The position numbers were made by a program, and so were the translations under genes. Below, piece by piece: positions 6,969 to 24,250 of a stretch of DNA of 64,000 bases. Within the stretch, counting starts at the first letter, position 1. The number at the start of each line of letters is the position of its first letter. Under the pieces are notes generated by a model. That model saw only the letters and a list, made by a program, of their open reading frames with translations, did not search any database and had not been told where the DNA came from. The stretch lies in contig CAKVHQ010000006.1 in the NCBI GenBank assembly GCA_934749845.1, forward strand, positions 6,194-70,193. Direction: 5' to 3'. This DNA comes from an uncultured Clostridia bacterium. GTDB lineage: Bacteria; Bacillota; Clostridia; Christensenellales; UBA1242.

Positions 6969-9077
6969 TTAGTTTTCAACCACTACTGCAAGCACCATTG
7001 GTTTACGCTTTGTCTTTTTAAAGAAAAAGTTTGCTAGTGCTTTTTTAATGCTGTTTTTAAGTGCTTGAACATCCCAATCTTCAAGGTTTGTTTGAGAAAC
7101 TACTTCTCTAACAACCTGTCTGCCTTCTCTTATTAAGCTTTCCATTTCGCTTTGATAAATTAAGCCACGAGAGATAATATCTGGCCCAGATGTTATTTCC
7201 TTTGTAACTTGGTTAATTCCAACGATAGCAACTGCCAAACCGTCTTCACTGAGTTGTCGTCTATCTCTTAAAACAGAACTATCACTGTCGCCAAGACCAA
7301 GTCCGTCAACAAGTCTTTCGCCTGCTGGAACTTTTCCTGCAACCTTAATTGACCTTGAATTTACTTCAACAACATTGCCAACTTCTGCTAGCACAACATT
7401 TCTTGGCTCCATGCCAAGTCTAACAGCCAAGTCTTTGTGGAGTTTTAAGTGTCTGTATTCGCCATGAACTGGCATAAAGAATTTTGGCTTAACAAGTTTG
7501 TGAATTAGTTTTATTTCTTCTTGGTGTGCGTGACCAGAGGCATGAACTGCTTCAAGCGAATTGTAAATAACCTGACAGCCAAGTTTGTATAAAGCATTGA
7601 TAACATTGTTGATTGATTTTTCGTTACCTGGAATTGGTGCTGCGCTAATAATAACAGCATCGTGTTCGTTAAGTTTAATTTTTTGGAATTCGCCACTAGC
7701 CATTCTTGTTAATGCACTCATAGGCTCGCCTTGACTTCCTGTTGTGATAACCAAAACTTCTTTATCTTGATATTTACCAATATCGTCAATATCAATAAAA
7801 ATTTTAGGATTAAATTTAAGTTCGCCAATTTTGTAGGCAGTTTCGGTTACATTTTGCATGCTTCTGCCTGTGAAAGTTACTTTTCTATTATATTTTTCGG
7901 CAAGAGTTAAAAGTTGTTGAAGTCTATGCACATTACTTGCAAAGGTTGCAACAATAATTCTTTCATCGCTAAATCTATCAAAAAGTTCATCAAGTTTTTT
8001 GCCAACCTGACTTTCACTCATGGAGTGACCTTCTCTTTCGATGTTTGTGCTTTCACAAGTTAAAAGCAAAACTCCTTGATTGCCAAGTTCTGCAAAACGA
8101 GCAAGGTCTGTGGTTTTTCCGTCTATAGAAGTATAGTCAATTTTAAAGTCGCCAGTGTGAACCATAACGCCAGCAGGGCAAGTTATTGCCATGCCCATTG
8201 AGCCTGCAATACTATGGTTTACTCTAATAAATTCAACACTAAAACAACCAAGTTTAACAACTTCTCTTTCTTTAACGCAATTTAATTTTGCTTTAATTTT
8301 TGGAAATTCTCTTAATTTGTTTTGAATGAGAGCAATAGTTAGTTTGCTTCCGTAAACAGGAACTTCAAGCTCGTTCAAAACATAAGGCATTGCGCCAATA
8401 TGGTCCTCGTGACCATGAGTCACAACAATACCACGAATTCTTTCCTTGTTTTGTGTTAAGTATGTTATTTCCGGCACAACAAGGTCTATACCTGGCATCA
8501 ACTCGCCATATGGGAATGTTGAGCCACAATCGACAACAATAATATCTCTGCCATATTCAAGTGCCATCATATTTTTGCCAATTTCGCCCACACCGCCAAG
8601 GAAGATAACTTTTAATGAGTTTTTTGATTTCTTCTCTAGGTTTGGAACTTTTTGGTTTTCACTATCGTCTAACGAAATGATTTGTTCCATGCTGTGCTTA
8701 TGATTTTCCGCATCAATTTTTTCAAACAAATTAAGTTTTTTTGGTTTTTGCACTTGTTTTTTCTTGAAATCATTTGCGGTTTCGGTTGAATAGGTTGTCA
8801 TTCTTACTGGTTTTTGTTCGTTTGTTTGAGCAACAGTTGTTGCTGGTTTTCTTACTGTTTTTCCAGACAAGTCAACACCATTTAATTCAACATTATTAAG
8901 TCCATCTGTATTTTTTATTTTGCTTTTAAATGGATTTGAATATCTTTTTGTTGGTCTTTTGCCAATAACATCTTTCGCCGTTTTTTGCGGACTTTGTTTT
9001 ACACTTTCTGTTTGTGCTTGAACAGGCTTTGTTGACACACTATTTAGAAAAATGTTTTTTGTTGGTTTTTCGTTCAT
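6969..9077 (-). CDS. rnj: ribonuclease J (metallo-beta-lactamase/beta-CASP) with an N-terminal extension of about 150 aa
   Basis: The conserved core starts at LKVIFLGGVGEIGKNM. It has the MBL motif VTHGHEDHIGAMPY plus beta-CASP and C-terminal domains. The best start is the ATG at 9077, preceded by AAAGGAGTTATT. Confidence 0.9.
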   Translation of the reverse strand: MNEKPTKNIFLNSVSTKPVQAQTESVKQSPQKTAKDVIGKRPTKRYSNPFKSKIKNTDGLNNVELNGVDLSGKTVRKPATTVAQTNEQKPVRMTTYSTETANDFKKKQVQKPKKLNLFEKIDAENHKHSMEQIISLDDSENQKVPNLEKKSKNSLKVIFLGGVGEIGKNMMALEYGRDIIVVDCGSTFPYGELMPGIDLVVPEITYLTQNKERIRGIVVTHGHEDHIGAMPYVLNELEVPVYGSKLTIALIQNKLREFPKIKAKLNCVKEREVVKLGCFSVEFIRVNHSIAGSMGMAITCPAGVMVHTGDFKIDYTSIDGKTTDLARFAELGNQGVLLLTCESTNIEREGHSMSESQVGKKLDELFDRFSDERIIVATFASNVHRLQQLLTLAEKYNRKVTFTGRSMQNVTETAYKIGELKFNPKIFIDIDDIGKYQDKEVLVITTGSQGEPMSALTRMASGEFQKIKLNEHDAVIISAAPIPGNEKSINNVINALYKLGCQVIYNSLEAVHASGHAHQEEIKLIHKLVKPKFFMPVHGEYRHLKLHKDLAVRLGMEPRNVVLAEVGNVVEVNSRSIKVAGKVPAGERLVDGLGLGDSDSSVLRDRRQLSEDGLAVAIVGINQVTKEITSGPDIISRGLIYQSEMESLIREGRQVVREVVSQTNLEDWDVQALKNSIKKALANFFFKKTKRKPMVLAVVVEN

Positions 9078-9147
9078 AATAACTCCTTTTAGTTTAATTT
9101 TTACACTCATTTAATGAGTTTTGTTATAAATTTTCAAAACAAACATA

Positions 9148-9188
9148 AACGCAAAAACCTCGACTTCAAAAAGTCTTTTTCGTGCGTT
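9148..9188 (-). terminator. stem-loop terminator after the 9229..10158 membrane-protein gene
   Basis: Nested inverted repeats (AACGCA/TGCGTT outer, GACTT/AAGTC inner) followed on the minus strand by a T-rich tract. Confidence 0.4.
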
Positions 9189-9228
9189 ATCTTTTGTTTT
9201 TTAATTTAAAATATAAAACAAAGCAAAA

Positions 9229-10158
9229 TTAAATAATGTTTTTAACTTTGCTAAATTTATCCTGTTCTTCAAGTTTTTTTGGCATTATTATGTTTTGACC
9301 GTCACAATAATATCTCATTCCCAAACATTCGTAGTAAACAACATTTTTAAATATAATTATGGTTAGTAATGACATCGGCAAAATAATTACCAAAGCAACG
9401 CCAAATGTGAAAAATACTGCAAACATATTTAAAATGAAAAGTAAAACGGAAATAACTAAACTATTGCTGAAAATTGATAGAAATTTTCTGCATATAGCCT
9501 TTGTTCCCTTTTTAATTGCGGTAAACACGCCATAGTTGTTAACTGCCATTGAAACTTCCCAACCAGCAGTTATTGTGATTTTTAAAGCAATCATGAGTAA
9601 AACATACAAAATGCAAATTAAAGGTGCAATAAACGATTTGGATAGAAGGATATAAATTCCCACTGCACCAAAAGCGATAATTAAGTCCCAAATATAAATT
9701 GTAATAAGTTTAACCAAACCATATTTAACAGACTTTCCAAAATTTGCAACATAACAATTCATAAACCCAAGTTTTAAAGTTGTGCTCATAAACGAACGAA
9801 CATCGTCTGTTACTGGCAAAGTGCAAAGTCCGTCAACAAAATAATATAGCGTTACAGAAACTATGCCAACTGCTAAAAATAGAGGCATTAAGTTTGCGTT
9901 TACAATTATTTCATAAAACTTTTTTGCTATTAAAATTAAAATTTCAATCAAATTATTAAAATTAAAATTTAAAAACATTTTACTCAAGTTTTCTTGTAAA
10001 AATCCAAAAAATCCTTGATTTATCAGTGTATTGATTATAGGCAAAGAAACGACGGTTGTCAAGCCCATTATACAAATAAACACAATTATTTTGTACAAAA
10101 GGATTTTCCAAACCGAAGAAAAATTGTTAATTAAAAGTTTAAAAGTGTTTTTAAACAT
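9229..10158 (-). CDS. hypothetical polytopic membrane protein (309 aa)
   Basis: At least 6 hydrophobic helices, RBS AAGGTGA, no recognisable motif. Confidence 0.4.
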   Translation of the reverse strand: MFKNTFKLLINNFSSVWKILLYKIIVFICIMGLTTVVSLPIINTLINQGFFGFLQENLSKMFLNFNFNNLIEILILIAKKFYEIIVNANLMPLFLAVGIVSVTLYYFVDGLCTLPVTDDVRSFMSTTLKLGFMNCYVANFGKSVKYGLVKLITIYIWDLIIAFGAVGIYILLSKSFIAPLICILYVLLMIALKITITAGWEVSMAVNNYGVFTAIKKGTKAICRKFLSIFSNSLVISVLLFILNMFAVFFTFGVALVIILPMSLLTIIIFKNVVYYECLGMRYYCDGQNIIMPKKLEEQDKFSKVKNII

Positions 10159-10180
10159 ATCGTCACCTTATCTTTTGATA

Positions 10181-10996
10181 TCAATAGTTATAATATTTCC
10201 TATTGTCGTATCTGTTTATGTTTGAAAGTTCAAAGTATGAAGTCATGCAAAGCGAAGTGTAATAAATGAATAATAGTAAAACGCCCAAAATGTTTGTGAT
10301 ATATGCAAGGTTGCCCTTAAGTAAGCATGCAAGCGGAATTATAACCACAAAAGGTACAAGCATTGCAAGCAAGTAAGAGAAAGTGTTTTTGTTCATGAGT
10401 TTAATTGAATTTGCTATTGCCTGTTTTGTTGGGTATCCGCTAATAAGCATATTTGGAATGGTTAAAAATATAATTGATGTTATGAACATGAAAATTATAA
10501 ATTTAATCACGCACAAAATTACTGCCAAAACAATATTTAAAACTGTTGGTTGATTTCCTATTCCACTGCAAATTATATGAAGCAAAATAATTAAACCAGA
10601 AAGCAAAAATTGCAAAACAAACCAAATTAGCAAAATGATTGACAAGTTTACAATAACAACAAGGATATTGTTGTTTAGGTATTGGAACATGCTTTTGTAG
10701 TTGAGTTTTCCACTACGCATATGATTTTCCATTTGACCGATTGCAAGACTTACGAAAACTGAAAGTACGGCAATTCCAAGAACAACCAAAATTATTGGCA
10801 AAATTTTAAAATCAATTAAAGAATAAAAAATGTCGCCAAAACTTCTAACCGTTATTTTTGAATAGTTTGTCATAAATTCAAAAGTTTTGAATGGCGAAAG
10901 CAAACCGCCAAAATATGCGGTTGGAACAATCGCTAACAAAAAAATGTATAGAAAATTTTTAAAAATATAACCAAAACTTAATTTAACATATTTCAT
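10181..10996 (-). CDS. hypothetical polytopic membrane protein (271 aa)
   Basis: At least 6 hydrophobic helices. It sits directly upstream of the 9229 gene on the same strand. Confidence 0.4.
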   Translation of the reverse strand: MKYVKLSFGYIFKNFLYIFLLAIVPTAYFGGLLSPFKTFEFMTNYSKITVRSFGDIFYSLIDFKILPIILVVLGIAVLSVFVSLAIGQMENHMRSGKLNYKSMFQYLNNNILVVIVNLSIILLIWFVLQFLLSGLIILLHIICSGIGNQPTVLNIVLAVILCVIKFIIFMFITSIIFLTIPNMLISGYPTKQAIANSIKLMNKNTFSYLLAMLVPFVVIIPLACLLKGNLAYITNILGVLLLFIYYTSLCMTSYFELSNINRYDNRKYYNY

Positions 10997-11170: not shown

Positions 11171-11461
11171 TTATTTTTGGTCTTTATCATCTTGGTTTGT
11201 GTGCTGTTGATTTTCACCTTCATTAGATTGTTCTAAATTTGTTTCATCGTTAGTTTTGTCGTTGACATTTTCTGTTTCATCTGTTTTTTTGTCTTTTTTT
11301 ATTATTCCCAAAGTAACGAAAATACCAAGCACCGCGGTTACAACGCTTGTTATTGCAACTTCGTCCACACTAAACCCGAATGTTGTGCCCAAAGTGTTTA
11401 TTAAAAGAATTATTGCTCCAAGTAAACTGATCCAAAAGGTATAATTTTTAAATTTTTTCAT
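11171..11461 (-). CDS. holin-like membrane peptide (phi-LC3/Phage_holin_1-like), 96 aa
   Basis: KNYTFWISLLGAIILLINTLGTTFGFSVDE...VVTAVLGIFVTLGII gives two TM helices around an FGF turn, followed by a highly charged C-terminal tail. It is the last gene of the late operon. Confidence 0.45.
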   Translation of the reverse strand: MKKFKNYTFWISLLGAIILLINTLGTTFGFSVDEVAITSVVTAVLGIFVTLGIIKKDKKTDETENVNDKTNDETNLEQSNEGENQQHTNQDDKDQK

Positions 11462-11711
11462 TTTTTTCTCCTTCTTGTTTATTTACTAAACTCACATTCT
11501 TTTTCTTGTTTTTATAAACCACTTGTTTAACTTCTTCAACTTCTTTTTTAATCTCGTGAACAACTCCCAAGTGGTCTGTTAAATCTTTGATTGTTTGTTG
11601 ATATTTGTTTTCTCTTTGTTTGCTGTCTTTAAGCACAAATATTAGCAAGCCCAAAAATAATACAGCCCATAGTCCGTTTTTTATTGCCAAGTCAAAAATG
11701 TCTTGCCACAT
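11448..11711 (-). CDS. BhlA/UviB-family holin-like peptide (87 aa)
   Basis: A single N-terminal TM with the family signature (NGLWAVLFLGLLIFVLKDSKQRENKYQQTI, compared with BhlA QGPFAVLFCWLLFYVMKTSKERETKLYNQI), followed by a coiled charged tail. Confidence 0.65.
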   Translation of the reverse strand: MWQDIFDLAIKNGLWAVLFLGLLIFVLKDSKQRENKYQQTIKDLTDHLGVVHEIKKEVEEVKQVVYKNKKKNVSLVNKQEGEKNEKI

Positions 11712-11717
11712 AACAAT

Positions 11718-11972
11718 TTAGGAAAAATTTTTTAAATTTATTAGTTTTTCAATATCATCTTGTTGAGGCTCTTTTTCTTCTTTAACATTTTCTTTTAAGG
11801 CTTCTTCGTTTGAGGAAATAATTTGCTCAAAACTTTTTACTATTTTGTCATGCTCCTCTTTTGTTAATCTTGAATCAAACATAAACAATTCTCCATTTTT
11901 TAAAATTTGTTTTAACCTTTGTCTTTCAAACTCTTTAACATATTGCGAAAAACTTTTAAATTGCATTTCCAC
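11718..11972 (-). CDS. hypothetical protein (84 aa), acidic/coiled
   Basis: Intact ORF overlapping the end of the 505-aa gene by 17 nt. No motif. Confidence 0.35.
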   Translation of the reverse strand: MEMQFKSFSQYVKEFERQRLKQILKNGELFMFDSRLTKEEHDKIVKSFEQIISSNEEALKENVKEEKEPQQDDIEKLINLKNFS

Positions 11973-13473
11973 TTTCCATAAGTTCGATATTCATCATCAA
12001 ATTGGAAATGTAGGCTTTCTCTTCATCGGTTTCAATTTTAAAACCAATTTGCTTTCCGCTTAATCTTACAGGAAACTTATTTAAAAGTTCGCTTCCACAA
12101 ACTTTAAATGACTTACTCTCTTTTTCGGTAAATATAGTCAAAGTGCAGTCGTATTTTGAAATTAAACTTATTTCCTTAACCAATTTCTTTTTGTTGGAAT
12201 AGCCTAAATCCGACAACGGCGAACACCAATATTTGTGAGTAGTTGCATTAAAAAATTTACCAGTTGTGCTAATTTCGCCCAGAACTCCACTATTCACTGT
12301 GTTATAGCAAAAAACCATTTTGTTCAAACTTTCAGATTGTAGCGAGATTAAATCGGCGATGTCTATTCCTCGAGTAATAGTGTAATCGCCTGTTTGAACA
12401 TCTAACAATAGCAAGGTGTTGTTTTTGTATGACGATTGGTTTTCGCAACCAATTTTTTTGTCGTCGCCATAATTAAGCCTGCAGGCTAGTGCATACTTGC
12501 CATTATGGAAACAAGCCTTTGCGTTTTTATTGTCCACATTTTCAAGCAATTTGCCAAATTTTAGGTCTATTTTTTTAGCAGTAACGCCATCAAACTTAAC
12601 AATTCCACCACGAGTTAACATAAACATTTGGTCGCCACAAATTTGTAAAGTGTCGGCATAAATTTTATTGCCGGACATGTACACATTTGATATTGAACGC
12701 ATGTCCTCGTAACAAGTGATTTTTAAAATATTGTAATCTCGAATTACATACATGTGACCTTGAAAGTTTATTAAACGATTGATTTTTCCCTGACCATCGT
12801 TAATTTCAAACGAACCCTCATCGTAGTCGGCGTTAGGTGTGTCAGTCCATTGTGTTAAGTGGTAGTTATTGCTGTAATTTATAAACTTCTGTTCCCCGCC
12901 TGTTATGTAATAAAGTTTGTTTTTGTAGTCACACAAACTAACAATTTTAGGGCAATTTTCAAATCTCATTGGAACGCCATCGCCATTCCAATAGCCTAAA
13001 TTATCAACTCCGCTAGAAACAATAACACTATCCAAATCAACAATTTTTGTGTTAAACATTTTAGGCTGTTTTGTGAATGCCAAGTGCGAAAGTTGAGTTG
13101 TGGTTGGATAAATGCTATTAAGCAAAATATACCAAACATAGCCATCACTTGCATAAAACAAAAGTTTGTCTGTATATTCATTTCTTGCTCTACTATAGTG
13201 TCCAAAATGCCATAGCGATTTTATTTCTTTATCAAAGTCATCATAGTAAATTCCTATTTGATTTTCTTCACTTTCTTTGCTTGTTGGTGTTGTGAAATTT
13301 TTAAAGCCTATTCCTTCTTTTAAAACGCCACTATTAAAATCAAAATTATAGCAAACGATGGCACTATCCATTGAGGTAATATTTTCGCCATAAGTAATGT
13401 CGAACCCACGAGCAAAATCATTGATTTTTAAAACAATTTTTTTGTTGCTATCATCTTTACTTATAATTGCCAT
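11956..13473 (-). CDS. hypothetical phage structural protein (505 aa), beta-rich; candidate tail, nozzle or receptor-binding component
   Basis: Largest unknown ORF downstream of the capsid genes. The ATG at 13473 is preceded by GAAGGTGG and overlaps the upstream stop as TAATG. The sequence is rich in aromatic/Gly beta-strand-like repeats. The function is inferred from position only. Confidence 0.4.
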   Translation of the reverse strand: MAIISKDDSNKKIVLKINDFARGFDITYGENITSMDSAIVCYNFDFNSGVLKEGIGFKNFTTPTSKESEENQIGIYYDDFDKEIKSLWHFGHYSRARNEYTDKLLFYASDGYVWYILLNSIYPTTTQLSHLAFTKQPKMFNTKIVDLDSVIVSSGVDNLGYWNGDGVPMRFENCPKIVSLCDYKNKLYYITGGEQKFINYSNNYHLTQWTDTPNADYDEGSFEINDGQGKINRLINFQGHMYVIRDYNILKITCYEDMRSISNVYMSGNKIYADTLQICGDQMFMLTRGGIVKFDGVTAKKIDLKFGKLLENVDNKNAKACFHNGKYALACRLNYGDDKKIGCENQSSYKNNTLLLLDVQTGDYTITRGIDIADLISLQSESLNKMVFCYNTVNSGVLGEISTTGKFFNATTHKYWCSPLSDLGYSNKKKLVKEISLISKYDCTLTIFTEKESKSFKVCGSELLNKFPVRLSGKQIGFKIETDEEKAYISNLMMNIELMESGNAI

Positions 13474-14099
13474 TATAGCCACCTTCTTGATTTAATTTTT
13501 ATTTCACCAACCTTTTTAAAATTGTTTGATAGTGACTTTTCAAACTTGGTTTGCCAAGCCTCACTTTCATCGGTAATACCCTTAATTAAACAAAACTGAC
13601 TGCATACACCATACGAAAGCGAAAGTATTGTTAAATTTCCGTTATGTGTTTCCAAATTGCTTGTGAAATCAACATCGCTAGGAAGATAGGCATACTTAAT
13701 TTTATATTTGCCATTATTAAGCACAATTTTATCCTTAACAAACGAATACTTAACAGGCTCGTCATTTTGCGTTATTTGTTTAACTTTATAAAGTTTTTGA
13801 GACAAAGTATCAATAGAAATTTCGCCATCTGTCACTTCTATTTCTTCTTCAAATAAAAGTGAATGGAAATCTGTGCAAATTTGCATTTGAGCGATGTTAA
13901 TGCAATCGAGAATTAGTTTCAAATCTTTTTCTGCCTGAATGGTTAAAAATTCGGGCAAATCTGTTTGAGTATCATCATGCAAGTAGCCTAAAAAAGTTGT
14001 TAAAGAAAGATTGTTTGTTTCGCAATATTCTGCGCATTTTTTATCATCACTTTCATTAAGTAATCTTGTAACTAATTTAATAACATCTAAAACTTTCAT
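13473..14099 (-). CDS. hypothetical phage protein (208 aa), candidate head-completion/adaptor protein
   Basis: The ATG at 14099 is preceded by TTAGGAGAATGT. It lies between the capsid genes and the 505-aa ORF. The function is by position only. Confidence 0.35.
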   Translation of the reverse strand: MKVLDVIKLVTRLLNESDDKKCAEYCETNNLSLTTFLGYLHDDTQTDLPEFLTIQAEKDLKLILDCINIAQMQICTDFHSLLFEEEIEVTDGEISIDTLSQKLYKVKQITQNDEPVKYSFVKDKIVLNNGKYKIKYAYLPSDVDFTSNLETHNGNLTILSLSYGVCSQFCLIKGITDESEAWQTKFEKSLSNNFKKVGEIKIKSRRWL

Positions 14100-14107
14100 A
14101 CATTCTC

Positions 14108-14512
14108 CTAAATCCATTTTGTTTTATAACTATCATTAAAATTCACATTTTCACCTGTCTTACTTTCGGCATACTTTAACATATCTTTGGCTTTAAAACT
14201 AGCTTCATCAAGCAAGCGATTTTGCTTTTCTGTTTCAAGTTTTTTATTGTTTTGCTCCATTTCATCCAATAGTTTTTTGTGATTTTCAACACTTGTTTTC
14301 AAAACCAAATCGAGTGTTCTTTTATCTAAATTTGTGTATGGCAAAACAAGTTGCAAAGTGTTTGTTGATGCTTTATGGTGAACTTCAAATTTTTTTGAAT
14401 TTAAGTTATAAACAATAAAATAATTTTTATCAATTTTTTTTAATCTTTTGATTATATTAAAAACATCATGCTTTATAAAAATTTTTCCCATTTCAATTAA
14501 CCAAAATGGCAA
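14108..14512 (-). CDS. hypothetical phage protein (134 aa or 127 aa from the ATG at 14491)
   Basis: Intact ORF directly after the capsid gene. The C-terminal half is a charged coiled coil. No motif. Confidence 0.35.
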   Translation of the reverse strand: MPFWLIEMGKIFIKHDVFNIIKRLKKIDKNYFIVYNLNSKKFEVHHKASTNTLQLVLPYTNLDKRTLDLVLKTSVENHKKLLDEMEQNNKKLETEKQNRLLDEASFKAKDMLKYAESKTGENVNFNDSYKTKWI

Positions 14513-14545
14513 GAAACTAAATTCCTTGCCATTTGATTACTCCTT

Positions 14546-15004
14546 TTAATTATTATCCGCCGTTGTTAAAGCAGAAACAATACCTGAAATTTTTGCTTGT
14601 CCTGCTGGTTTTGAACAAATTAAGTCGGCATATTTAACTAGGGTTGCTGAATATGTAGCATATCCTGCGTTTTGTTTAAGAACTTTGCCGTCCTCGCCTT
14701 CTAACCATTGCCAATCGCAAAGTTGATGAAGAGCAAATTCTTTAGTGTTAAGTAAAAACATAGTGCCGTTATCAATAAATCTATCTGCTACAACTGGAAT
14801 ACCACTGTAACTCATTGCCTTGTATCCACCTTGCAAGTCCATGATGTCGATGTTTCTTTTGTTTGTTGCAAGATAGTTTTGATACAATCTCTTAACATCA
14901 TAAGAGCATGCAATAAAGTCAACTGTACTTCCAACATTTTCGTCAAGAGTGTCGATTGCTTCTTGGATAACTGCGTCTGTTATCAATTTTTCTGTTCTGT
15001 CCAT
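14546..15004 (-). CDS. HK97-fold major capsid protein, C-terminal fragment (152 aa)
   Basis: GGYKAMSYSGIPVVADRFIDNGTMFLLNTKEFALHQLCDWQWLEGEDGKVLKQ...YSATLVKYADLICSKPAGQ matches my recollection of the C-terminal A-domain of Firmicutes-phage HK97-family capsid proteins. It is in the same reading frame as 15005..15733. Confidence 0.7.
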   Translation of the reverse strand: MDRTEKLITDAVIQEAIDTLDENVGSTVDFIACSYDVKRLYQNYLATNKRNIDIMDLQGGYKAMSYSGIPVVADRFIDNGTMFLLNTKEFALHQLCDWQWLEGEDGKVLKQNAGYATYSATLVKYADLICSKPAGQAKISGIVSALTTADNN

Positions 15005-15733
15005 TTATTTAACCATCCATGCATTTGCACTTCTGTCAACACCATAAAGTGTGCCAGTTGAAGCAAAAATTTTGCCAAGACCTGTTAATTCGTTGTCTTT
15101 TGAGCCTTGTACTGTGAAATAGCAGTTTGCAACGATAGAACTTGTTAAAGTTTTGTTAATTTTGATTGTTTTGTTTGCTCTATCAACAGCAATAACTCTA
15201 ACGCCTGCAAAACCTTCTACAACTGCATTTGCTGATGTGTAAGCATCAACAACCATGCCTTCGATAAAGTTTTTAACGCTATCCATTGTGATAACTTGAC
15301 CAGAAACACTTTTAATTGTTCCAAGTTTTCCAGAACCGTCACCATATAACATTCTTCCAAAGTTGAATGTGCTTGCCTTGATTAAGCCTTCCATTTCGGC
15401 ATTAAGCAAATTAACGAATGCGCCAACAGAGTGTTCGCTTGCTCTAACTGCTTTGTCTGTTAATTCAATTTTTCCGTACAAGTTTTTAAGTTCTGTTACA
15501 AATTTAACGTAACTGTTTCCTGCACTTTGTGGAAGTGCGCCATCTTCTGTACCTGCTCCAATACCGCCATTGATACCAAATGGTGCTAGTTTTACAATTT
15601 CTTTGCCATAAACATCTGCTGATGTTTGTTGAATTTTTGTGAGTAAAGGATTAACTTTGTCGTTTAATTGATTTGATACAACATCAAGATATATTTTCTT
15701 GAGTGCGTTGTCTGCACTTGATAATGTAACCAT
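15005..15733 (-). CDS. HK97-fold major capsid protein, N-terminal fragment (242 aa)
   Basis: Follows the scaffold gene and has a strong RBS (TAAGGAGAAAAATT-ATG). Its sequence (ELKNLYGKIELTDKAVRAS...NLLNAEMEGL...FGRMLYGDGSG) fits the N-arm, E-loop and P-domain part of such capsids. It ends at TAA 15007-15005. Confidence 0.7.
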   Translation of the reverse strand: MVTLSSADNALKKIYLDVVSNQLNDKVNPLLTKIQQTSADVYGKEIVKLAPFGINGGIGAGTEDGALPQSAGNSYVKFVTELKNLYGKIELTDKAVRASEHSVGAFVNLLNAEMEGLIKASTFNFGRMLYGDGSGKLGTIKSVSGQVITMDSVKNFIEGMVVDAYTSANAVVEGFAGVRVIAVDRANKTIKINKTLTSSIVANCYFTVQGSKDNELTGLGKIFASTGTLYGVDRSANAWMVK

Positions 15734-15744
15734 AATTTTTCTCC

Positions 15745-16395
15745 TTATTTATTATTCAAAAGTGCCACCATGTAGTCTCCCGCTTCCTTTATTGAAGATG
15801 GTTTGTTTTTTGGAGTGACCATAACATTGCCACCGCCATAATTGCTCATAAGTGGCACGCCTTTATTAGACACAATTTTAGATAAATAGTCACCTATTAT
15901 CTTTTCTTTAATGACTGGGTTAGTTAATATGTAGCCATCTATAAAATTTTGGTCGTTTGCTAACTCGTCATTAGTTTTAAATTTGCTTGCTTTAACTTTT
16001 TCGTAGGCAAGTTCAAGGGAGTTGTCGCTTGAGGCTAAAACTTTGTCGCTTGAAATTACTTTTGAAATGTCGTCGGCAAACTGTTTGGCAGTTGGGTTAA
16101 GTTCAAAAAAATTTTGAACTTTTTCCATCCAGCCATCTTGCATGTATTGTGGTGCGGAAGGTTTTTCTTCTGCATTGTCACCCACACGCTGTTTCAAATC
16201 TTTTAGTGCTTGACATTTTTTTGTAAATTCTTTTTCCAAATTTACATAGGCCTTTTCAAGTTCGCTAAAATTTTTGAATTTTGTAATTGAGGAGCCGTTA
16301 TCTCCAATTTGTTGAGCCATTTCTTCTTGCGTAAGTGCTGTCTCCTTGCTCTCAGTTTGGTTTAGTGGTTGTTCCTCGTTTATAATTTCTTCCAT
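15745..16395 (-). CDS. phage scaffolding protein (216 aa)
   Basis: Sits between portal and capsid. It has an acidic N-terminus and a helical KFKNFSELEKAYVNLEKEFTKKCQALKDLK segment typical of scaffold proteins. Confidence 0.55.
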   Translation of the reverse strand: MEEIINEEQPLNQTESKETALTQEEMAQQIGDNGSSITKFKNFSELEKAYVNLEKEFTKKCQALKDLKQRVGDNAEEKPSAPQYMQDGWMEKVQNFFELNPTAKQFADDISKVISSDKVLASSDNSLELAYEKVKASKFKTNDELANDQNFIDGYILTNPVIKEKIIGDYLSKIVSNKGVPLMSNYGGGNVMVTPKNKPSSIKEAGDYMVALLNNK

Positions 16396-16396
16396 A

Positions 16397-18271
16397 TTAT
16401 TCTCCTTGTTTCATCAATTTTTTGTGCTCATTTATATGTTCTAGAAAAATTTGTTTAATCTTTTCGTTATTTTTGAATTTTTCATATTCGCCACCAAGCA
16501 TAAATGCGATATGTTCATCCAAATGCAATTTATGGTCGTCTATAGTTAAAACTTCTTCTTTGCTTCCACCTAGCATAGCAAGATTTTCTTTGCCTGCTTT
16601 TCTCATGTGAAGTTCGGAAATATCATTTTGTGCTTCCCAAATTCCATAGCCAAGCATTTCAAGAGTTTTGCTTCTAACTCTGTTGGAAATTTTTCCGTTT
16701 TCATCGCTTAAAAGTCCTGCTTCTAACAATTTAAAAATCATATTTCTCTTTTGAGCCAAGGTGTCGCCTATTTCGTTAGCGGTTTCAAGTACAACATCGT
16801 CCGAACCAATATCACTGTTGTTAAAGTAGAACATCTCCACGCTTCCATCTTGACCGATTATCTTGCAAATTCGGCTTACTGAAGCGAACTGTTTGTATAG
16901 TTTCAAAATGTATTTGCCTATAAGTTTAGTTGCGGTTTTAATTTCATCGGCGGAGCAACTTAATCTATTGTTTTCTTGTTCAATTAAAATTTCAAGGGCT
17001 GTTCCTGACATATTATTTTTAATTAAACTTGAAGTGAGCATTGTTTCGGTTATTCCACTAATTTGAGTAAATTCGTTAATTAGTTTTTCTTCTTCGGTGT
17101 CAAATTCGGTTGGCATAGAGCCTTGGTCCATTATTTCTGGTTTGTTTGAACCTTGCCTATAAACAAGCACTTTGCCCGGGCTCATACCTTCTTCTTCCAA
17201 GTTGTCGGTGTCGATGCTTCCATCTTCAACTGTTAAAATGCCCATTGCCATGCGGTTTAAATATTCGTGCTTACGATTTTTAACCGCGTTATATGCTCGT
17301 TGAACAGGAATTAGCCTTTCAATTACGCTAACACCCCAAAAACTGTTTGGCTCGGCAATACATACTTGTTTAATAAATGGGAATCCTCGTTTGCTATCGT
17401 CTAAATTAACAAATGGGAGTTCTCCTAAATACAAAAGTTTGTCGCCTGCAATAATGGTTAATCTTCCGTTTGGCGCATCGCTTGTTGGTGCTTCATATTT
17501 TTCAATAACTAATGCGCTGTTTTCGGCTTTATGTCCAATAACTTTGTTGATTTGTGATGAATAGCCCAGTCCGCCAAGCGATGAAGAATTTGAATTAAGT
17601 GTGATGACATCAAGTTCTTCTGGCTCAACATCAACACCCCAAATGGTTTTAATTGTTCTAACATCATAGGTCTTTGCATGAATAATACTCATGCAATCTT
17701 CCACTTTTTCGCAAGAGTTATTGTCTGGGAAAATTTCGTAAGGTGGGCAAACTGTAATTTCAACATCGCCTTGCTTTATGCTTTTGCCATTTTCATCTTG
17801 ACCAACACAAAGCCCATGATTATAGTTCCAAGTAACTTTATAAAAACTTGTTCCGCAAATTTCGCTCCAATTTGTTGCTTGCGAAATTAAGTTGCTAACA
17901 TCTAATTTATAGTAAATGGAATTTAAAATGTTTTTGCTTACCTTTGCGGTGTTTAAATCGCTTTCACTATTGGTTGCTGGAACAACACTCATTTTTGGTC
18001 TTACTGTGGATAGTCTGCATTTTCGTGCTTCAATAATTGGTGCGATGTGGTTATAAACTTCTCTTTCTTGCCAAAAAAATTGTTTGTGAAAATCTTCAAC
18101 TTCGCCAAGACTTGTTATACCACAGTATTGATTTCCGTTTAAAAAATTCATGTTAAGTTGCCATTGTCTTTCATAAGATTTTCGCTTTTGCTGGCGTTTT
18201 AAAAAATCTTCTTTAACTGCTTTTACAATATCTTCTGCAAAGGTTAAATCTTGCTTTGTTTTTTTACTCAT
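16397..18271 (-). CDS. phage portal protein (624 aa)
   Basis: In the canonical position between the terminase and scaffold genes, with the size of a large (podovirus/P22-class) portal. It has a conserved-looking core (FWGVSVIERLIPVQRAYNAVKNRKHEYLNRMAMGIL). Confidence 0.65.
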   Translation of the reverse strand: MSKKTKQDLTFAEDIVKAVKEDFLKRQQKRKSYERQWQLNMNFLNGNQYCGITSLGEVEDFHKQFFWQEREVYNHIAPIIEARKCRLSTVRPKMSVVPATNSESDLNTAKVSKNILNSIYYKLDVSNLISQATNWSEICGTSFYKVTWNYNHGLCVGQDENGKSIKQGDVEITVCPPYEIFPDNNSCEKVEDCMSIIHAKTYDVRTIKTIWGVDVEPEELDVITLNSNSSSLGGLGYSSQINKVIGHKAENSALVIEKYEAPTSDAPNGRLTIIAGDKLLYLGELPFVNLDDSKRGFPFIKQVCIAEPNSFWGVSVIERLIPVQRAYNAVKNRKHEYLNRMAMGILTVEDGSIDTDNLEEEGMSPGKVLVYRQGSNKPEIMDQGSMPTEFDTEEEKLINEFTQISGITETMLTSSLIKNNMSGTALEILIEQENNRLSCSADEIKTATKLIGKYILKLYKQFASVSRICKIIGQDGSVEMFYFNNSDIGSDDVVLETANEIGDTLAQKRNMIFKLLEAGLLSDENGKISNRVRSKTLEMLGYGIWEAQNDISELHMRKAGKENLAMLGGSKEEVLTIDDHKLHLDEHIAFMLGGEYEKFKNNEKIKQIFLEHINEHKKLMKQGE

Positions 18272-18494
18272 ACTTACCTTCCTTTAATTTTTTTACAATT
18301 ACATTTTGTGGACTTTTTGGTGTTACAAATTTTCCAATATTTTTATACATTTTGTTTAAACAATCTTTGCACAAACAAAATTTTCTTTTAAAAATATTTT
18401 TGTATGTAACGCACACAGTTGCGATGTTTTTACAGTTGTCTTGACAACATTTTTTAATGTGCTTAACTTTTTCAATTTCAATTATCATTTTCAT
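18264..18494 (-). CDS. small Cys-rich (zinc-binding?) phage protein (76 aa or 74 aa)
   Basis: Eight cysteines (CCQDNC...C...CLCKDC). It overlaps the portal start by 8 nt. Confidence 0.35.
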   Translation of the reverse strand: MKMIIEIEKVKHIKKCCQDNCKNIATVCVTYKNIFKRKFCLCKDCLNKMYKNIGKFVTPKSPQNVIVKKLKEGKYE

Positions 18495-18837
18495 TCTCCT
18501 TTAACCTAGAAATGATTTCGTTTATTTTTTCGTCTAATTCTTCATTAGACATTTTTGAAATATCATCATCAAAATTGGAACTTTCAAATTCCAACAAAAC
18601 TTTGGCAGCAGATATATCTGGCGGAACATTTTTTATCGTCACTTTTTTCTTAACAAGTCGTTCGTTTTCATTTTCATCTAACGAATACTCTTCGATAACT
18701 TCGTTGGTTTTATAGCCTAAAGCGCGTTGCTTTAAAGCATTTAAAATTTCTTCACTTGAACTTAAATTTTCACTTTTTTGCACAATTTTTTGAGTTTTTT
18801 TGCGTTTTTTAATGATTTTTTCATCCATACATACCAT
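18478..18837 (-). CDS. terminase small-subunit-like protein (119 aa)
   Basis: ALKQRALGYKTNEVIEEY...VKKKVTIKNVPPDISAAKVLLE resembles the (A/G)FGY...K..PPD..A motif I recall from Firmicutes-phage small terminases. It overlaps the TerL stop, and it lies downstream of TerL rather than upstream. Confidence 0.4.
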   Translation of the reverse strand: MVCMDEKIIKKRKKTQKIVQKSENLSSSEEILNALKQRALGYKTNEVIEEYSLDENENERLVKKKVTIKNVPPDISAAKVLLEFESSNFDDDISKMSNEELDEKINEIISRLKENENDN

Positions 18838-20263
18838 TTTTCTCCCTTTTCAAGTTGTTGATTAGTTTAAGTTTATACTTTTGAGAATCTGTTAAAATTG
18901 GCTTATCTAGTTCTTGTGGAACAATAGACATAATGTAGTATCGAAGTTCGTCCATGGCATGATCGTTTCGCTTAACAGGAGATTCATCACTGCCCCATGA
19001 ATACGATTTTATTTCTCGAATCATGTTCACGCAGTTTTTAAAAATAAACAATTTTCGGTTTCCGTTTGCGTCACAAATATACTTTCTAACCATTTGAAGA
19101 CCAACCAAACTTTTGTTAACTTTTGTGTTTACTAGAATTTTATTTTCGTAAAATTTTTGAGCAACCGAGTCTTGACAGGCTAAAGTTTTTTGAAGCGATG
19201 CACTGTCGATTATTGCTTTTAAATATCCTTTACTATCTCTTTGCCAACCTAACTTGTCAGCCACTGCATGAATGTTTGATGAATGCTCTTCTATTGGTTG
19301 CTCTTTTGCATAAACTTCGGCAATCACATAAATGTTGTCATCAAAATCTCTTGCGTAAAAGTGACAAGAAAGTGGATTTGTAAAACCAGGGTCGATTGAA
19401 ATGTTATCGTACCATTCTTTTGGAACATCAAAAGGTTCAATAACATTCAAGTTTTCATCAAAGTTTGGATATACTAATCCGTTTGAACTTGTAAATTTAC
19501 CATCGCACCTAGATTCAATTTCCTTTTCACTCATCTGCGACTTTAATTTTAAAATTTCGTCTTGGTTTAAAAATGGATTGTCCTGCCAAGAAATGTTTTC
19601 ATACCAAATGTCGTCATCATTTCTTTCGTTTAGGTACACCTCATTATATACCCATGTTAACCCCTTAAGTGGAGTCATAGTGCCAAAAATTTCTCCGCAC
19701 TTATCAATAACACGCATTTTACATTCCATGTAAATATCTTCTGGTGGCTCTTCATCAAACCAAACATAATCAAGCGATGTTCCTTGAAATTTTTCTCTGC
19801 CTTGGTCCACGCTTTTAAAACCAATAGTGCTAATCTTGCCCGAAACATTGCGAACTAAAATTTTGTCTATTATGCCGTACTCCATGCTTTCTTTTTTGCC
19901 ACTTTGCATAACAACATCAACAATCCAATCTTTGTTTAGATAGTATAAAATTTTTTGTTGAGCGACATCTCGTTGCACTTGCGTTGAAAGCGAAACAACC
20001 CAACCGTTTGTTTGCTCTTTGTTTTGTTTATAGGGGTGATTTCCCCTTGCAAGCCAAACTGTTTCCACCGCGCCACATTCCGTTTTGCCTGTTCGGTTTC
20101 CACCAAAAACCCAGCGATTTTTTTTGGTGCATTTATGAAATAAGATTTGTTTTTTATGAACCAATTCGCCTTGATTGTACCTAGACAAAGTATCTCCCCT
20201 TTGCCTACGCTGTTTTTCCAAACAAAGTTTATTAAGCATTTCAGTTAGTTTTTGTTTTCTCAT
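18821..20263 (-). CDS. phage terminase large subunit (480 aa)
   Basis: Walker A reads GGNRTGKTECGA and Walker B reads LDYVWFDEEP. The C-terminal nuclease-like half has acidic motifs (IDPGF...; NDHAMDELRY). RBS AAAGGTAG is present. Confidence 0.85.
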   Translation of the reverse strand: MRKQKLTEMLNKLCLEKQRRQRGDTLSRYNQGELVHKKQILFHKCTKKNRWVFGGNRTGKTECGAVETVWLARGNHPYKQNKEQTNGWVVSLSTQVQRDVAQQKILYYLNKDWIVDVVMQSGKKESMEYGIIDKILVRNVSGKISTIGFKSVDQGREKFQGTSLDYVWFDEEPPEDIYMECKMRVIDKCGEIFGTMTPLKGLTWVYNEVYLNERNDDDIWYENISWQDNPFLNQDEILKLKSQMSEKEIESRCDGKFTSSNGLVYPNFDENLNVIEPFDVPKEWYDNISIDPGFTNPLSCHFYARDFDDNIYVIAEVYAKEQPIEEHSSNIHAVADKLGWQRDSKGYLKAIIDSASLQKTLACQDSVAQKFYENKILVNTKVNKSLVGLQMVRKYICDANGNRKLFIFKNCVNMIREIKSYSWGSDESPVKRNDHAMDELRYYIMSIVPQELDKPILTDSQKYKLKLINNLKREKNGMYG

Positions 20264-20325
20264 ACATCTACCTTTGTTTATTTTTTATAATTAAGTTAAT
20301 AATAAAAACATATACTAATTTGGAA

Positions 20326-21081
20326 ATGAAAAGATTTTTAATAATAATTGCTTGTTTTTTATTTATTTTTGTTTCAATTTTTGTTATTCGGTCAACTATG
20401 ACTCAAGAAGTGGGTGCAAACCAAACCAGTGGCTACGCCATGGTAAAAGACAATAACTCTTATTTTTACCGTTACACCTTGGAAAACCCAGCCGTAAATA
20501 ACAAATACTTTTTGCTGGAAAAATCATACTTCGTTAAAATAATCGAAAATTCAAACGAAAATTTTTACAAAGCGGAATATAACGGTCTTAAAGGATATGT
20601 AAAAAAAACAGATGTGGAATTTGTTGAAGAAATACCAGAAAATCCGTTTTTAAGTGAAATTACATTTGATATTTACTCGGCAAGCAGTGTTGAATTGAGA
20701 ACCGAACCTAGCACCGAGAATGGAATTGGAAGCATAATAACCACATTGCCAAGTGGATATAAAAATTTGAATTATTATGGAAAATTAACGGGAGAAGAAA
20801 GCATAAAAGGACTGGGAAATATATGGCTTTACTGCTCATTTACAACTCCAGAAAACAAACAAGTTTTTGGTTATGTTTACTCTCCACTAACTGTAAATTT
20901 AAGTCCAATAAATGAAAACGGCGAAAATTTAACGCCAGTTTCCGTAACCGATTATGTCCCTATAAATTCGCTACTTTACCTTTCTTTGTCCACAAAAAAT
21001 TTAATTATAATTGCAATAACAATTCCCGCTTTATACATTGCCTATTTGTTTGTTAAACCAACAAAAATTTTAAAAGAGTAA
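20326..21081 (+). CDS. membrane-anchored protein with two SH3b-like domains
   Basis: N-terminal TM or signal sequence. Two bacterial SH3-like segments are present (GYAMVKDNNSYFY...YKAEYNGLKGYVKKTDVEFV and VELRTEPSTENG...VFGYVYSPL), followed by a C-terminal TM helix. No catalytic domain was seen. Confidence 0.5.
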   Translation: MKRFLIIIACFLFIFVSIFVIRSTMTQEVGANQTSGYAMVKDNNSYFYRYTLENPAVNNKYFLLEKSYFVKIIENSNENFYKAEYNGLKGYVKKTDVEFVEEIPENPFLSEITFDIYSASSVELRTEPSTENGIGSIITTLPSGYKNLNYYGKLTGEESIKGLGNIWLYCSFTTPENKQVFGYVYSPLTVNLSPINENGENLTPVSVTDYVPINSLLYLSLSTKNLIIIAITIPALYIAYLFVKPTKILKE

Positions 21082-21109
21082 TAAAAAACACGGATAAATT
21101 CGTGTTTTT

Positions 21110-21640
21110 TTATGCCTTACATTTATTTAAAGAATTTGTGTAACTAGAATTAAACTCAAATTCTTCATCGGTGCAAATGTTAGACTCTTTTTGTTTTGCA
21201 AAGTGGTTATAATATTCTTTAATCCAACTTTCTTTAAACAAAAGTTGTTCAAGTTTTTCGCTTGTATAACCAAAATTTTTTAATCGAATTGCAAATTCTT
21301 CCACTGCCCTATCAATTTTTCTAAAAAATGTCCTTCTTGACATTTCAAGCAATTTAAAGCACATTTCTGGCTTTACATGATCGAAATATTTCATAACCAA
21401 AATTCTTGCACTTTTTGTATCTATTGAAGCAATTACATTTTCAATAATCACTTTTAAATTTATCATCATTTTTTTTCTTTGAATTAAACTAATTATCTTT
21501 TCAGCGTTTTCCATTGTTGATAAATGATTACAACAAGAATTAACACCTTGTGAAATAACCAACTTGTCTATTGCGTCAGAAATTGGTTCTAGACAATTAT
21601 AAGTTGAAAGTAAGGTTTTTGCCCATATTTTTTGTTTCAT
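21110..21640 (-). CDS. hypothetical regulator with a sigma-70 region-4-like HTH (176 aa)
   Basis: ARILVMKYFDHVKPEMCFKLLEMSRRTFFRKIDRAVEEFAIRL resembles the region-4 HTH of ECF/ArpU/RinA-like factors. The ATG at 21640 is preceded by AAGGAG. Confidence 0.4.
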   Translation of the reverse strand: MKQKIWAKTLLSTYNCLEPISDAIDKLVISQGVNSCCNHLSTMENAEKIISLIQRKKMMINLKVIIENVIASIDTKSARILVMKYFDHVKPEMCFKLLEMSRRTFFRKIDRAVEEFAIRLKNFGYTSEKLEQLLFKESWIKEYYNHFAKQKESNICTDEEFEFNSSYTNSLNKCKA

Positions 21641-21865
21641 TTTAAAATCTCCTTTTGCTCGCACTTATTATAAAAACCAAGTTTGCACCATGTCAAAGTT
21701 TTGTGACAAAATTTTTGTAAAAAACTTATATTATTACATTATTTTACAAAAACTTGCTTATCATGTCGAACAACTGTTCTAATAATAGCACACTTAATAT
21801 GACACTATGACTGTCAAGTTTGCTAAATTTTTTAGAACAAATGCTTTAAAAATGAAAAAACACCC

Positions 21866-23377: not shown

Positions 23378-23551
23378 CAATCAGTCCTCCTGATAATTTT
23401 ATATTATTAAATATTTTTTGTAATGCCTATGCCATTAAAATAAGTGCAAGTTTTGTCGTATGTTGTCAAACTGGCACAGACTTCTATATAATTTTATTGG
23501 ACGAACTTTAAACTTATGCAAATTAGGCAATAAAAAAACTTGATTTTTTAA

Positions 23552-24250
23552 TCAAGCCTTTTCGATGTAAATTAGTCTGTGACATGATGGACATTCAAGT
23601 TTGCCATTATGTCTTATTTTTTCAAGTTCTTTGCTTGGTAGTTCCATTCTGCAACCGCCACATCTTGAATCAATAAGTTTTACTACAATAGGAAATACTC
23701 CGTCTTGTTTAAGGGTTTTGTACTTGCTAACAAATGATGAATCAAGGTCTTTTTCAAGTTTAGCCATTTTGTCCTTTAAAGCCTTAATTTCAGGCTCTTT
23801 TTCGGTATAATATTCATCAAATTTACTTTTGCTCTCTTGGTGTTTTGATTTTGCGATGCTTGTTTTCTTTTTTAAAGCATCAAATTCTCCAATAAGTTGT
23901 TTTGCTCGTCTTTCAGTGGCAAGCAATCTGTTTTCAAGTTCTTTAAGTTGTCTGCCTGTTTGGCTCAACTTATTTCTCAAGTCTTTAAGTTCATCTTGAT
24001 TTAACGATTGGTTAAATTGTCTTGAATACTTATCAACAAGGCTAATGCCCTTCTCTTGAACTTGTTTTAGCTTTTGAAAATCGTCACAAAGTTTATTAGC
24101 ATTTTTATCAAGTTCTAGAATTTGATTTTGTGCTTCTTTAACAAACGAAACCATTGCTTGAGCATTTTTCTTGTGTTCATTTTTGTTAATTTCTCTTTCT
24201 AGTCTAAACAATTCTGTATCCAATTTTTGATATTCTAATATTTTTTCCAT
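23552..24250 (-). CDS. COG1579-type coiled-coil protein with a C-terminal C4 zinc ribbon
   Basis: A long coiled coil followed by RCGGCRMEL...LECPSCHRLIY. The probable start is the ATG at 24250 (RBS AAAGGGAAT), not 24313, which would overlap trmK. Confidence 0.75.
   Translation of the reverse strand: MEKILEYQKLDTELFRLEREINKNEHKKNAQAMVSFVKEAQNQILELDKNANKLCDDFQKLKQVQEKGISLVDKYSRQFNQSLNQDELKDLRNKLSQTGRQLKELENRLLATERRAKQLIGEFDALKKKTSIAKSKHQESKSKFDEYYTEKEPEIKALKDKMAKLEKDLDSSFVSKYKTLKQDGVFPIVVKLIDSRCGGCRMELPSKELEKIRHNGKLECPSCHRLIYIEKA

Follow-up and report, generated by a model that had tools for sequence, protein, structure and literature searches.

On its minus strand, between the genes for SSB and RNase J, the 64-kb stretch of DNA analysed here (hereafter the window, taken at its full length) carries a head, packaging and lysis module of ~10.5 kb (11171..21664), recognisable from Pfam, PHROG and NCBIfam matches. 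The module begins with a RinA/ArpU/DUF1492-like regulator, an SH3 membrane protein encoded on the plus strand and TerL, followed by genes for proteins of 119 and 76 aa and for a portal of P22/SU10 type; it continues with a scaffold gene, the gene for the major capsid protein (MCP), four genes whose products of 134, 214, 508 and 84 aa have no match in Pfam, PHROG or NCBIfam, and two holins. The same order recurs in a syntenic contig of the same species (L001), in L002, L009, L011 and L012, and in others. Past the capsid gene, at 11956..14512, lie three of these genes whose products (134, 214 and 508 aa) are conserved; presumably they supply the particle with its adaptor, short tail and receptor-binding components. 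None of the genes in the cluster could be recognised as encoding an endolysin. The gene for the SH3-domain membrane protein (20320..21081, plus strand) is divergent from TerL, and two multi-pass membrane proteins of 271 and 309 aa are encoded on the minus strand between the holins and RNase J (9229..10996); all three of these membrane proteins accompany the module in several species (L009, L015, L020). The rest of the 64 kb is dense in housekeeping genes (gyrA/B-like, dnaG, rpoD, lepA, dnaK/J and groEL).

Apart from the capsid gene, the genes of this island are intact and collinear with L001, from which they differ by 88 nucleotides and by 9 amino acids. With ~90% of within-species changes synonymous, the island is, on these counts, under strong purifying selection and without decay; neither other disrupted genes nor relaxed selection, the marks of a decaying cryptic prophage, were found. 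Integrase or recombinase, replication and lysogeny genes are absent within 10 kb on either side of the module in the five species contexts inspected.

The capsid gene itself is interrupted. As the original prediction had described, the deposited sequence holds two ORFs in a single shared frame, separated only by TAA-ATG: an N-terminal piece of 242 codons plus the premature stop (15005..15733, minus strand) and a C-terminal piece of 152 codons (14546..15004, minus strand). On the minus strand the junction reads ...GCA TGG ATG GTT AAA TAA ATG GAC AGA..., with the premature TAA at 15007..15005 and the ATG immediately 3' of it at 15002..15004. Together the pieces make 242 + 1 + 152 = 395 codons, precisely the length of an intact homologue (P0001), so that their expected summation to an MCP of normal size for the HK97 family also holds. 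PHROG 14242 ('major head protein', 396 positions) is covered head to tail, positions 4-240 by the first piece and 251-389 by the second; in the Pfam scan a match to SU10_MCP, and a weak one, was returned for the C-terminal piece only. What all 163 related loci encode as one uninterrupted polypeptide is thus broken in the window at codon 243.

With the fused sequence as query, more than 5,800 relatives were retrieved; all of the best 120 are uninterrupted, with lengths of 382-411 aa. The intact allele P0001, 99% identical to the fused sequence, scores 253.8 bits against the NCBIfam model NF033394 (capsid_maj_Podo; cut-off 80), its residues 3-385 aligning to profile positions 1-310 of 311. Since a profile search of the PDB by sequence gave no significant capsid match, the fold was compared instead, using an AlphaFold2 (AF2) model built on 82 homologues (pLDDT 75.9, pTM 0.73). 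Foldseek matched this model to the capsids of Pa223, Mic1, A-1(L), SU10 and HK97 with a probability of 1.0, and its top PDB matches are all phage capsid or encapsulin HK97 folds. Taken together, the two pieces make up a single major capsid protein of HK97 fold. In 50,697 deposited phage genomes its nearest counterparts reach only 23-29% identity, and Clostridia chromosomes by the hundreds carry copies that are 58-90% identical.

In the AF2 model residue 243 falls within a short strand (243-245), so placed that the break lies 3' of the spine helix (103-129) and several P-domain strands and 5' of two A-domain helices (253-267 and 278-291). The original prediction had guessed that the break divides an N-arm/E-loop/P-domain part from a part with the A-domain. 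This is roughly right, the break separating the spine and P-domain from the A-domain helices, although some later strands of the fold also lie in the C-terminal piece; because of these strands, the model suggests that the two pieces would not be independent folding units.

Alignment with homologues accounts for each codon at the junction. Where the window has AWMV-K-stop-M-D-R-TEK, its close relatives have AWMV-P-Y-M-D-S-TEK, and the ancestral codons CCA TAC ATG GAC AGC are common to L001, L002, L003, L009 and L010. Pro is invariant at position 242 of the 82-sequence alignment and fills that position in 158 of 162 loci; Tyr is found at position 243 in 152 of 159 loci (TAT in 78, TAC in 74); and Met occupies the position of the ATG in 55 loci, all of the closest relatives included. 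The argument that chance nonsense mutation should not yield an ATG beside the stop is therefore refuted: no ATG was created, the one present being the conserved codon for Met244, which follows Tyr243 in all close relatives, and the stop arose by TAC->TAA. Since the ATG is ancestral, the main case for termination-reinitiation coupling falls. Nor does the same TAA-ATG recur in related strains, as a two-piece capsid would lead one to expect, an internal stop in the capsid gene being found in 0 of 163 loci with a relative. Two apparent exceptions were discarded: a stop in L101 is the natural end of its gene, and in L003, another assembly of the same species (from the ZEEV15-1 sample), the capsid gene (8539..9740) is called as 121 + 282 aa on account of a 10-N scaffold gap and a short duplication rather than a mutation. 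Before an ATG beside a premature stop is taken as a sign of coupling, it clearly needs to be compared with homologues.

The change from TAC to TAA did not come alone. The exact portal protein of the window led to a metagenome scaffold, scaffold_125 of ENA assembly ERZ28614050 (sample SAMEA4765641), which was compared as three stretches (L002, L005 and L006) covering 50,517 positions of the window. Over these the two sequences differ at four positions only (14996, 15005, 15009 and 15010), all within the 15 nt of 14996..15010. Every one of the four is G->T on the plus strand (C->A in the coding sense), and each changed G is preceded by T. Relative to scaffold_125 they replace Pro242 with Lys (CCA->AAA; 15010 and 15009), Tyr243 with the stop (TAC->TAA; 15005) and Ser246 with Arg (AGC->AGA; 14996); the first 241 residues of the N-terminal piece are the same as those of the intact allele in L002. 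Divergence of the window from the other assemblies of the species amounts to 1-2%, with transitions prevailing, and by this measure the window and scaffold_125 must be the same clone. L001, for example, is 99.03% identical to the window over 20.7 kb; transitions make up 73% of the differences, and only 9 are C>A, 4 of these being the ones in the junction. All four changes in the patch alter the protein, against an island background in which ~10% of changes do so (Fisher p ~3e-4, computed from the 88 nucleotide and 9 amino-acid differences to L001). As four independent changes in one 15-nt span are effectively impossible, the patch is, on this pattern, the product of one event.

The patch is also private. 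NCBI and ENA alike record the 242-aa and 152-aa products from a single 71.9-kb contig, the one to which the window belongs; intact alleles (395 aa) that fall into the same 90% cluster are carried by at least six further contigs. When the collections genome_contigs, metagenome_contigs and viral_contigs were scanned with exact and degenerate 35-mers, neither allele was returned, as must be expected of collections that lack the species itself: the closest capsid relative in genome_contigs is only 84% identical. Comparison with the relatives shows the lesion to be singular, non-conserved and, from the lack of other substitutions, evidently recent. Two mechanisms that might write several changes at once were considered and set aside. 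A local quasi-repeat acting as template, through mutation or gene conversion, is not supported, since the window has no second stretch of 12 nt or more that matches the derived patch; and hypermutation of the DGR type was rejected, all other strains having one sequence and Pro-Tyr being conserved across species.

We therefore consider this to be an ordinary capsid gene for a single HK97-fold polypeptide, of which one assembly's copy has acquired a private patch of four changes; one of these would have turned Tyr243 (TAC) into TAA, the next ancestral codon happening to be that for Met244. As to how the patch arose, we lean towards a technical rather than a biological origin, and think it somewhat more likely than not that the patch is an artefact of sequencing or consensus building. 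G<->T and A<->C are the classic pairs of Illumina cross-talk and oxidative-damage errors, and each of the changed G's has a T before it. A technical origin is preferred because four identical transversions so close together, within 15 nt, are what one bad read or damaged template typically leaves and what natural mutation very rarely produces. If the patch exists only in the consensus, it would be an assembly or sequencing artefact derived from a low-quality or damaged template, and the cells would make the normal 395-aa capsid protein. Two points tell against this. The rest of the contig is free of any other discrepancy in 50.5 kb, which means that the assembly is not generally error-prone, and an assembler with good coverage normally prefers the better-covered, correct path.

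The third option of the original prediction, a very recent mutation or a sequencing error, is accordingly the one that the private, single-clone patch and the intact gene of relatives favour, and its first half deserves serious weight even though we give it rather less than an even chance. Here the patch would be a genuine, very recent loss-of-function allele, in which one complex multi-nucleotide mutation truncates the capsid at residue 242. To a similar degree it is conceivable that the strain, or a subpopulation of it, no longer builds the particles of the module, the gene being a pseudogene around which no other decay has yet set in. The stop does stand in the deposited record, with both fragment products recorded in NCBI and ENA; the sister assembly is otherwise without a difference in 50.5 kb, which would make the event extremely recent; G:C->T:A is also a signature of oxidative (8-oxoG) damage in vivo; and individual strains do lose genes of phage modules that are domesticated or defective. 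However, four identical transversions in 15 nt would be very unusual as one natural event, an intact allele is present in the otherwise identical clone, and the other genes of the island, intact and apparently under strong purifying selection, give no sign of a dispensable module.

Far less probable is that the interruption is functional, whether as a two-piece capsid (residues 1-242 and 244-395, both made through reinitiation at TAA-ATG and co-assembling) or as a leaky stop whose low-level readthrough would yield full-length protein in sufficient amount; we regard this as a slender chance. The direct, in-frame adjacency of TAA and ATG would suit reinitiation, and adjacent stop-start pairs can support 70S reinitiation without a Shine-Dalgarno sequence; the ATG, however, is ancestral and not acquired, and no Shine-Dalgarno sequence is present in the 22 nt before it (at 15004). 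The starts of TerL's neighbours, of the portal and scaffold genes and of the capsid gene itself do have AAGGAG-like sites. The predicted position of the break between secondary-structure elements, just before the A-domain helices, would likewise be convenient for a split, but the same event that introduced the stop put Lys in place of the invariant Pro242, and every relative is unsplit, the otherwise identical clone included. The signs of an evolved split are thus missing on both sides: it is not conserved in relatives, and the downstream piece has gained no start signal of its own. Zero other substitutions in 50.5 kb would moreover have left no time for selection. Readthrough is disfavoured by the same lack of a split in any relative and the same loss of the invariant Pro, and by the stop codon itself, TAA being the dominant normal stop here; UAA, recognised by both release factors, leaks less than either of the other stops. 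That the stop is real and particles are still built from both capsid polypeptides (1-242 and 244-395) by TAA-ATG termination-reinitiation strikes us as scarcely credible. Were it true, we would be looking at a split HK97-fold capsid that had arisen naturally and only just come into being, within a head module that is domesticated and GTA-like.

A change of genetic code was another matter to consider, and the original prediction was correct that no other gene in the island has an in-frame stop, which holds under code 11. TAA ends 34 of the 44 long ORFs in the window and TGA 4 of the 44, and Trp is TGG throughout. Public gene calls on the sister contigs (L001 and L002) do run through stops, extending the genes that map to window 23435..24250, 18809..20263, 18463..18837 and 10151..10996 by 4 to 39 codons. 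The codons passed over are TGA only, with TAA following within those 4 to 39 codons; apparently the public gene caller chose code 4 for this 33% GC organism, and an alternative code was rejected, the internal stops that had been flagged being true TGA stops and the extensions an artefact of code-4 calling. Reassignment or suppression, by which TAA would be sense in the island or the host, finds in those extended calls its one point in favour and is otherwise so contradicted, by TAA terminating most long ORFs, by the lack of any other in-frame TAA in island genes, by the Tyr that relatives have at the site and by the lack of a tRNA gene (or tmRNA gene) within the 64-kb window, that its probability is negligible.

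As capsid biology, then, the lesion is ordinary and matters little, and its reading as a split capsid or as recoding is a false lead. The context of the module matters more: this is a head and lysis module without an integrase, held at a fixed site across many Christensenellales-type Clostridia of gut and rumen. Two genome scans found more than 540 species-representative genomes each with a relative, nearly all of them MAGs of Christensenellales-type Clostridia from gut or rumen. In 38 loci (a few contigs being represented twice) the RNase J gene is found on the same strand, 5.3-9 kb further downstream, and this linkage is kept even where RNase J is only 45-60% identical. The identity of the MCP tracks that of RNase J (Pearson 0.94, Spearman 0.63) and is always the higher of the two; in some lineages the module is found elsewhere, adjoining YqfD/PhoH. 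Head, packaging and lysis genes unaccompanied by integrase, replication or lysogeny genes, together with a fixed chromosomal locus, vertical co-divergence with the host and purifying selection, are the traits of a GTA-like element. The island looks, from this pattern of descent and gene content, like a vertically inherited, domesticated element of this kind and not like an ordinary prophage.

The capsid and its lesion each compare with familiar cases. Pfam PF17236 (SU10_MCP) is a distant relative of the capsid family in the window, and the window capsid gene, like those of podovirus-type HK97-fold capsids, follows genes for a P22/SU10-type portal and for a scaffold; it differs from them in being interrupted, in this copy, at codon 243. 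The patch resembles the nonsense pseudogenes and consensus errors of MAGs in occurring in a single assembly, affecting conserved residues, lacking compensating features and sitting among intact neighbours, and is set apart from them in that four identical transversions are packed closely together, in place of one base change or a homopolymer indel.

For the module the nearest comparison is FpGTA, a podovirus-like gene transfer agent of Faecalibacterium of similar size (PMC12946183, Nat Commun 2026). The same work describes GTA-like packaging of Christensenellaceae DNA in faecal virus-like particles (VLPs), for which the responsible genes were not identified; this gives indirect support to the idea that particles of the module may package random host DNA. 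Because the module described here lacks an integrase, sits at a fixed site and has a capsid more conserved than RNase J, it is possibly the gene cluster behind that packaging, and we put it forward as a candidate. In the second genome scan, which used an Oscillospiraceae-labelled seed, no Faecalibacterium was found, only Christensenellales-type genomes. The FpGTA capsid (RCH50849.1) is annotated as 'N4-gp56 family' (PMC12946183, supplementary file 4), whereas the window capsid is assigned to capsid_maj_Podo, the only model returned by the NCBIfam scan, with no N4-gp56 match at E<=0.01. Since this annotation places the two capsids in different named NCBIfam families, we have not filed the module as a member of the FpGTA family. 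The two are alike in several respects: both are operons of ~10.5 kb in gut Clostridia that encode a terminase, portal, scaffold, capsid and some structural proteins of unknown function, and neither has integrase or replication genes. Gene order sets the two apart, in that the window module has a putative small terminase-like gene after TerL and carries its holins inside the cluster.
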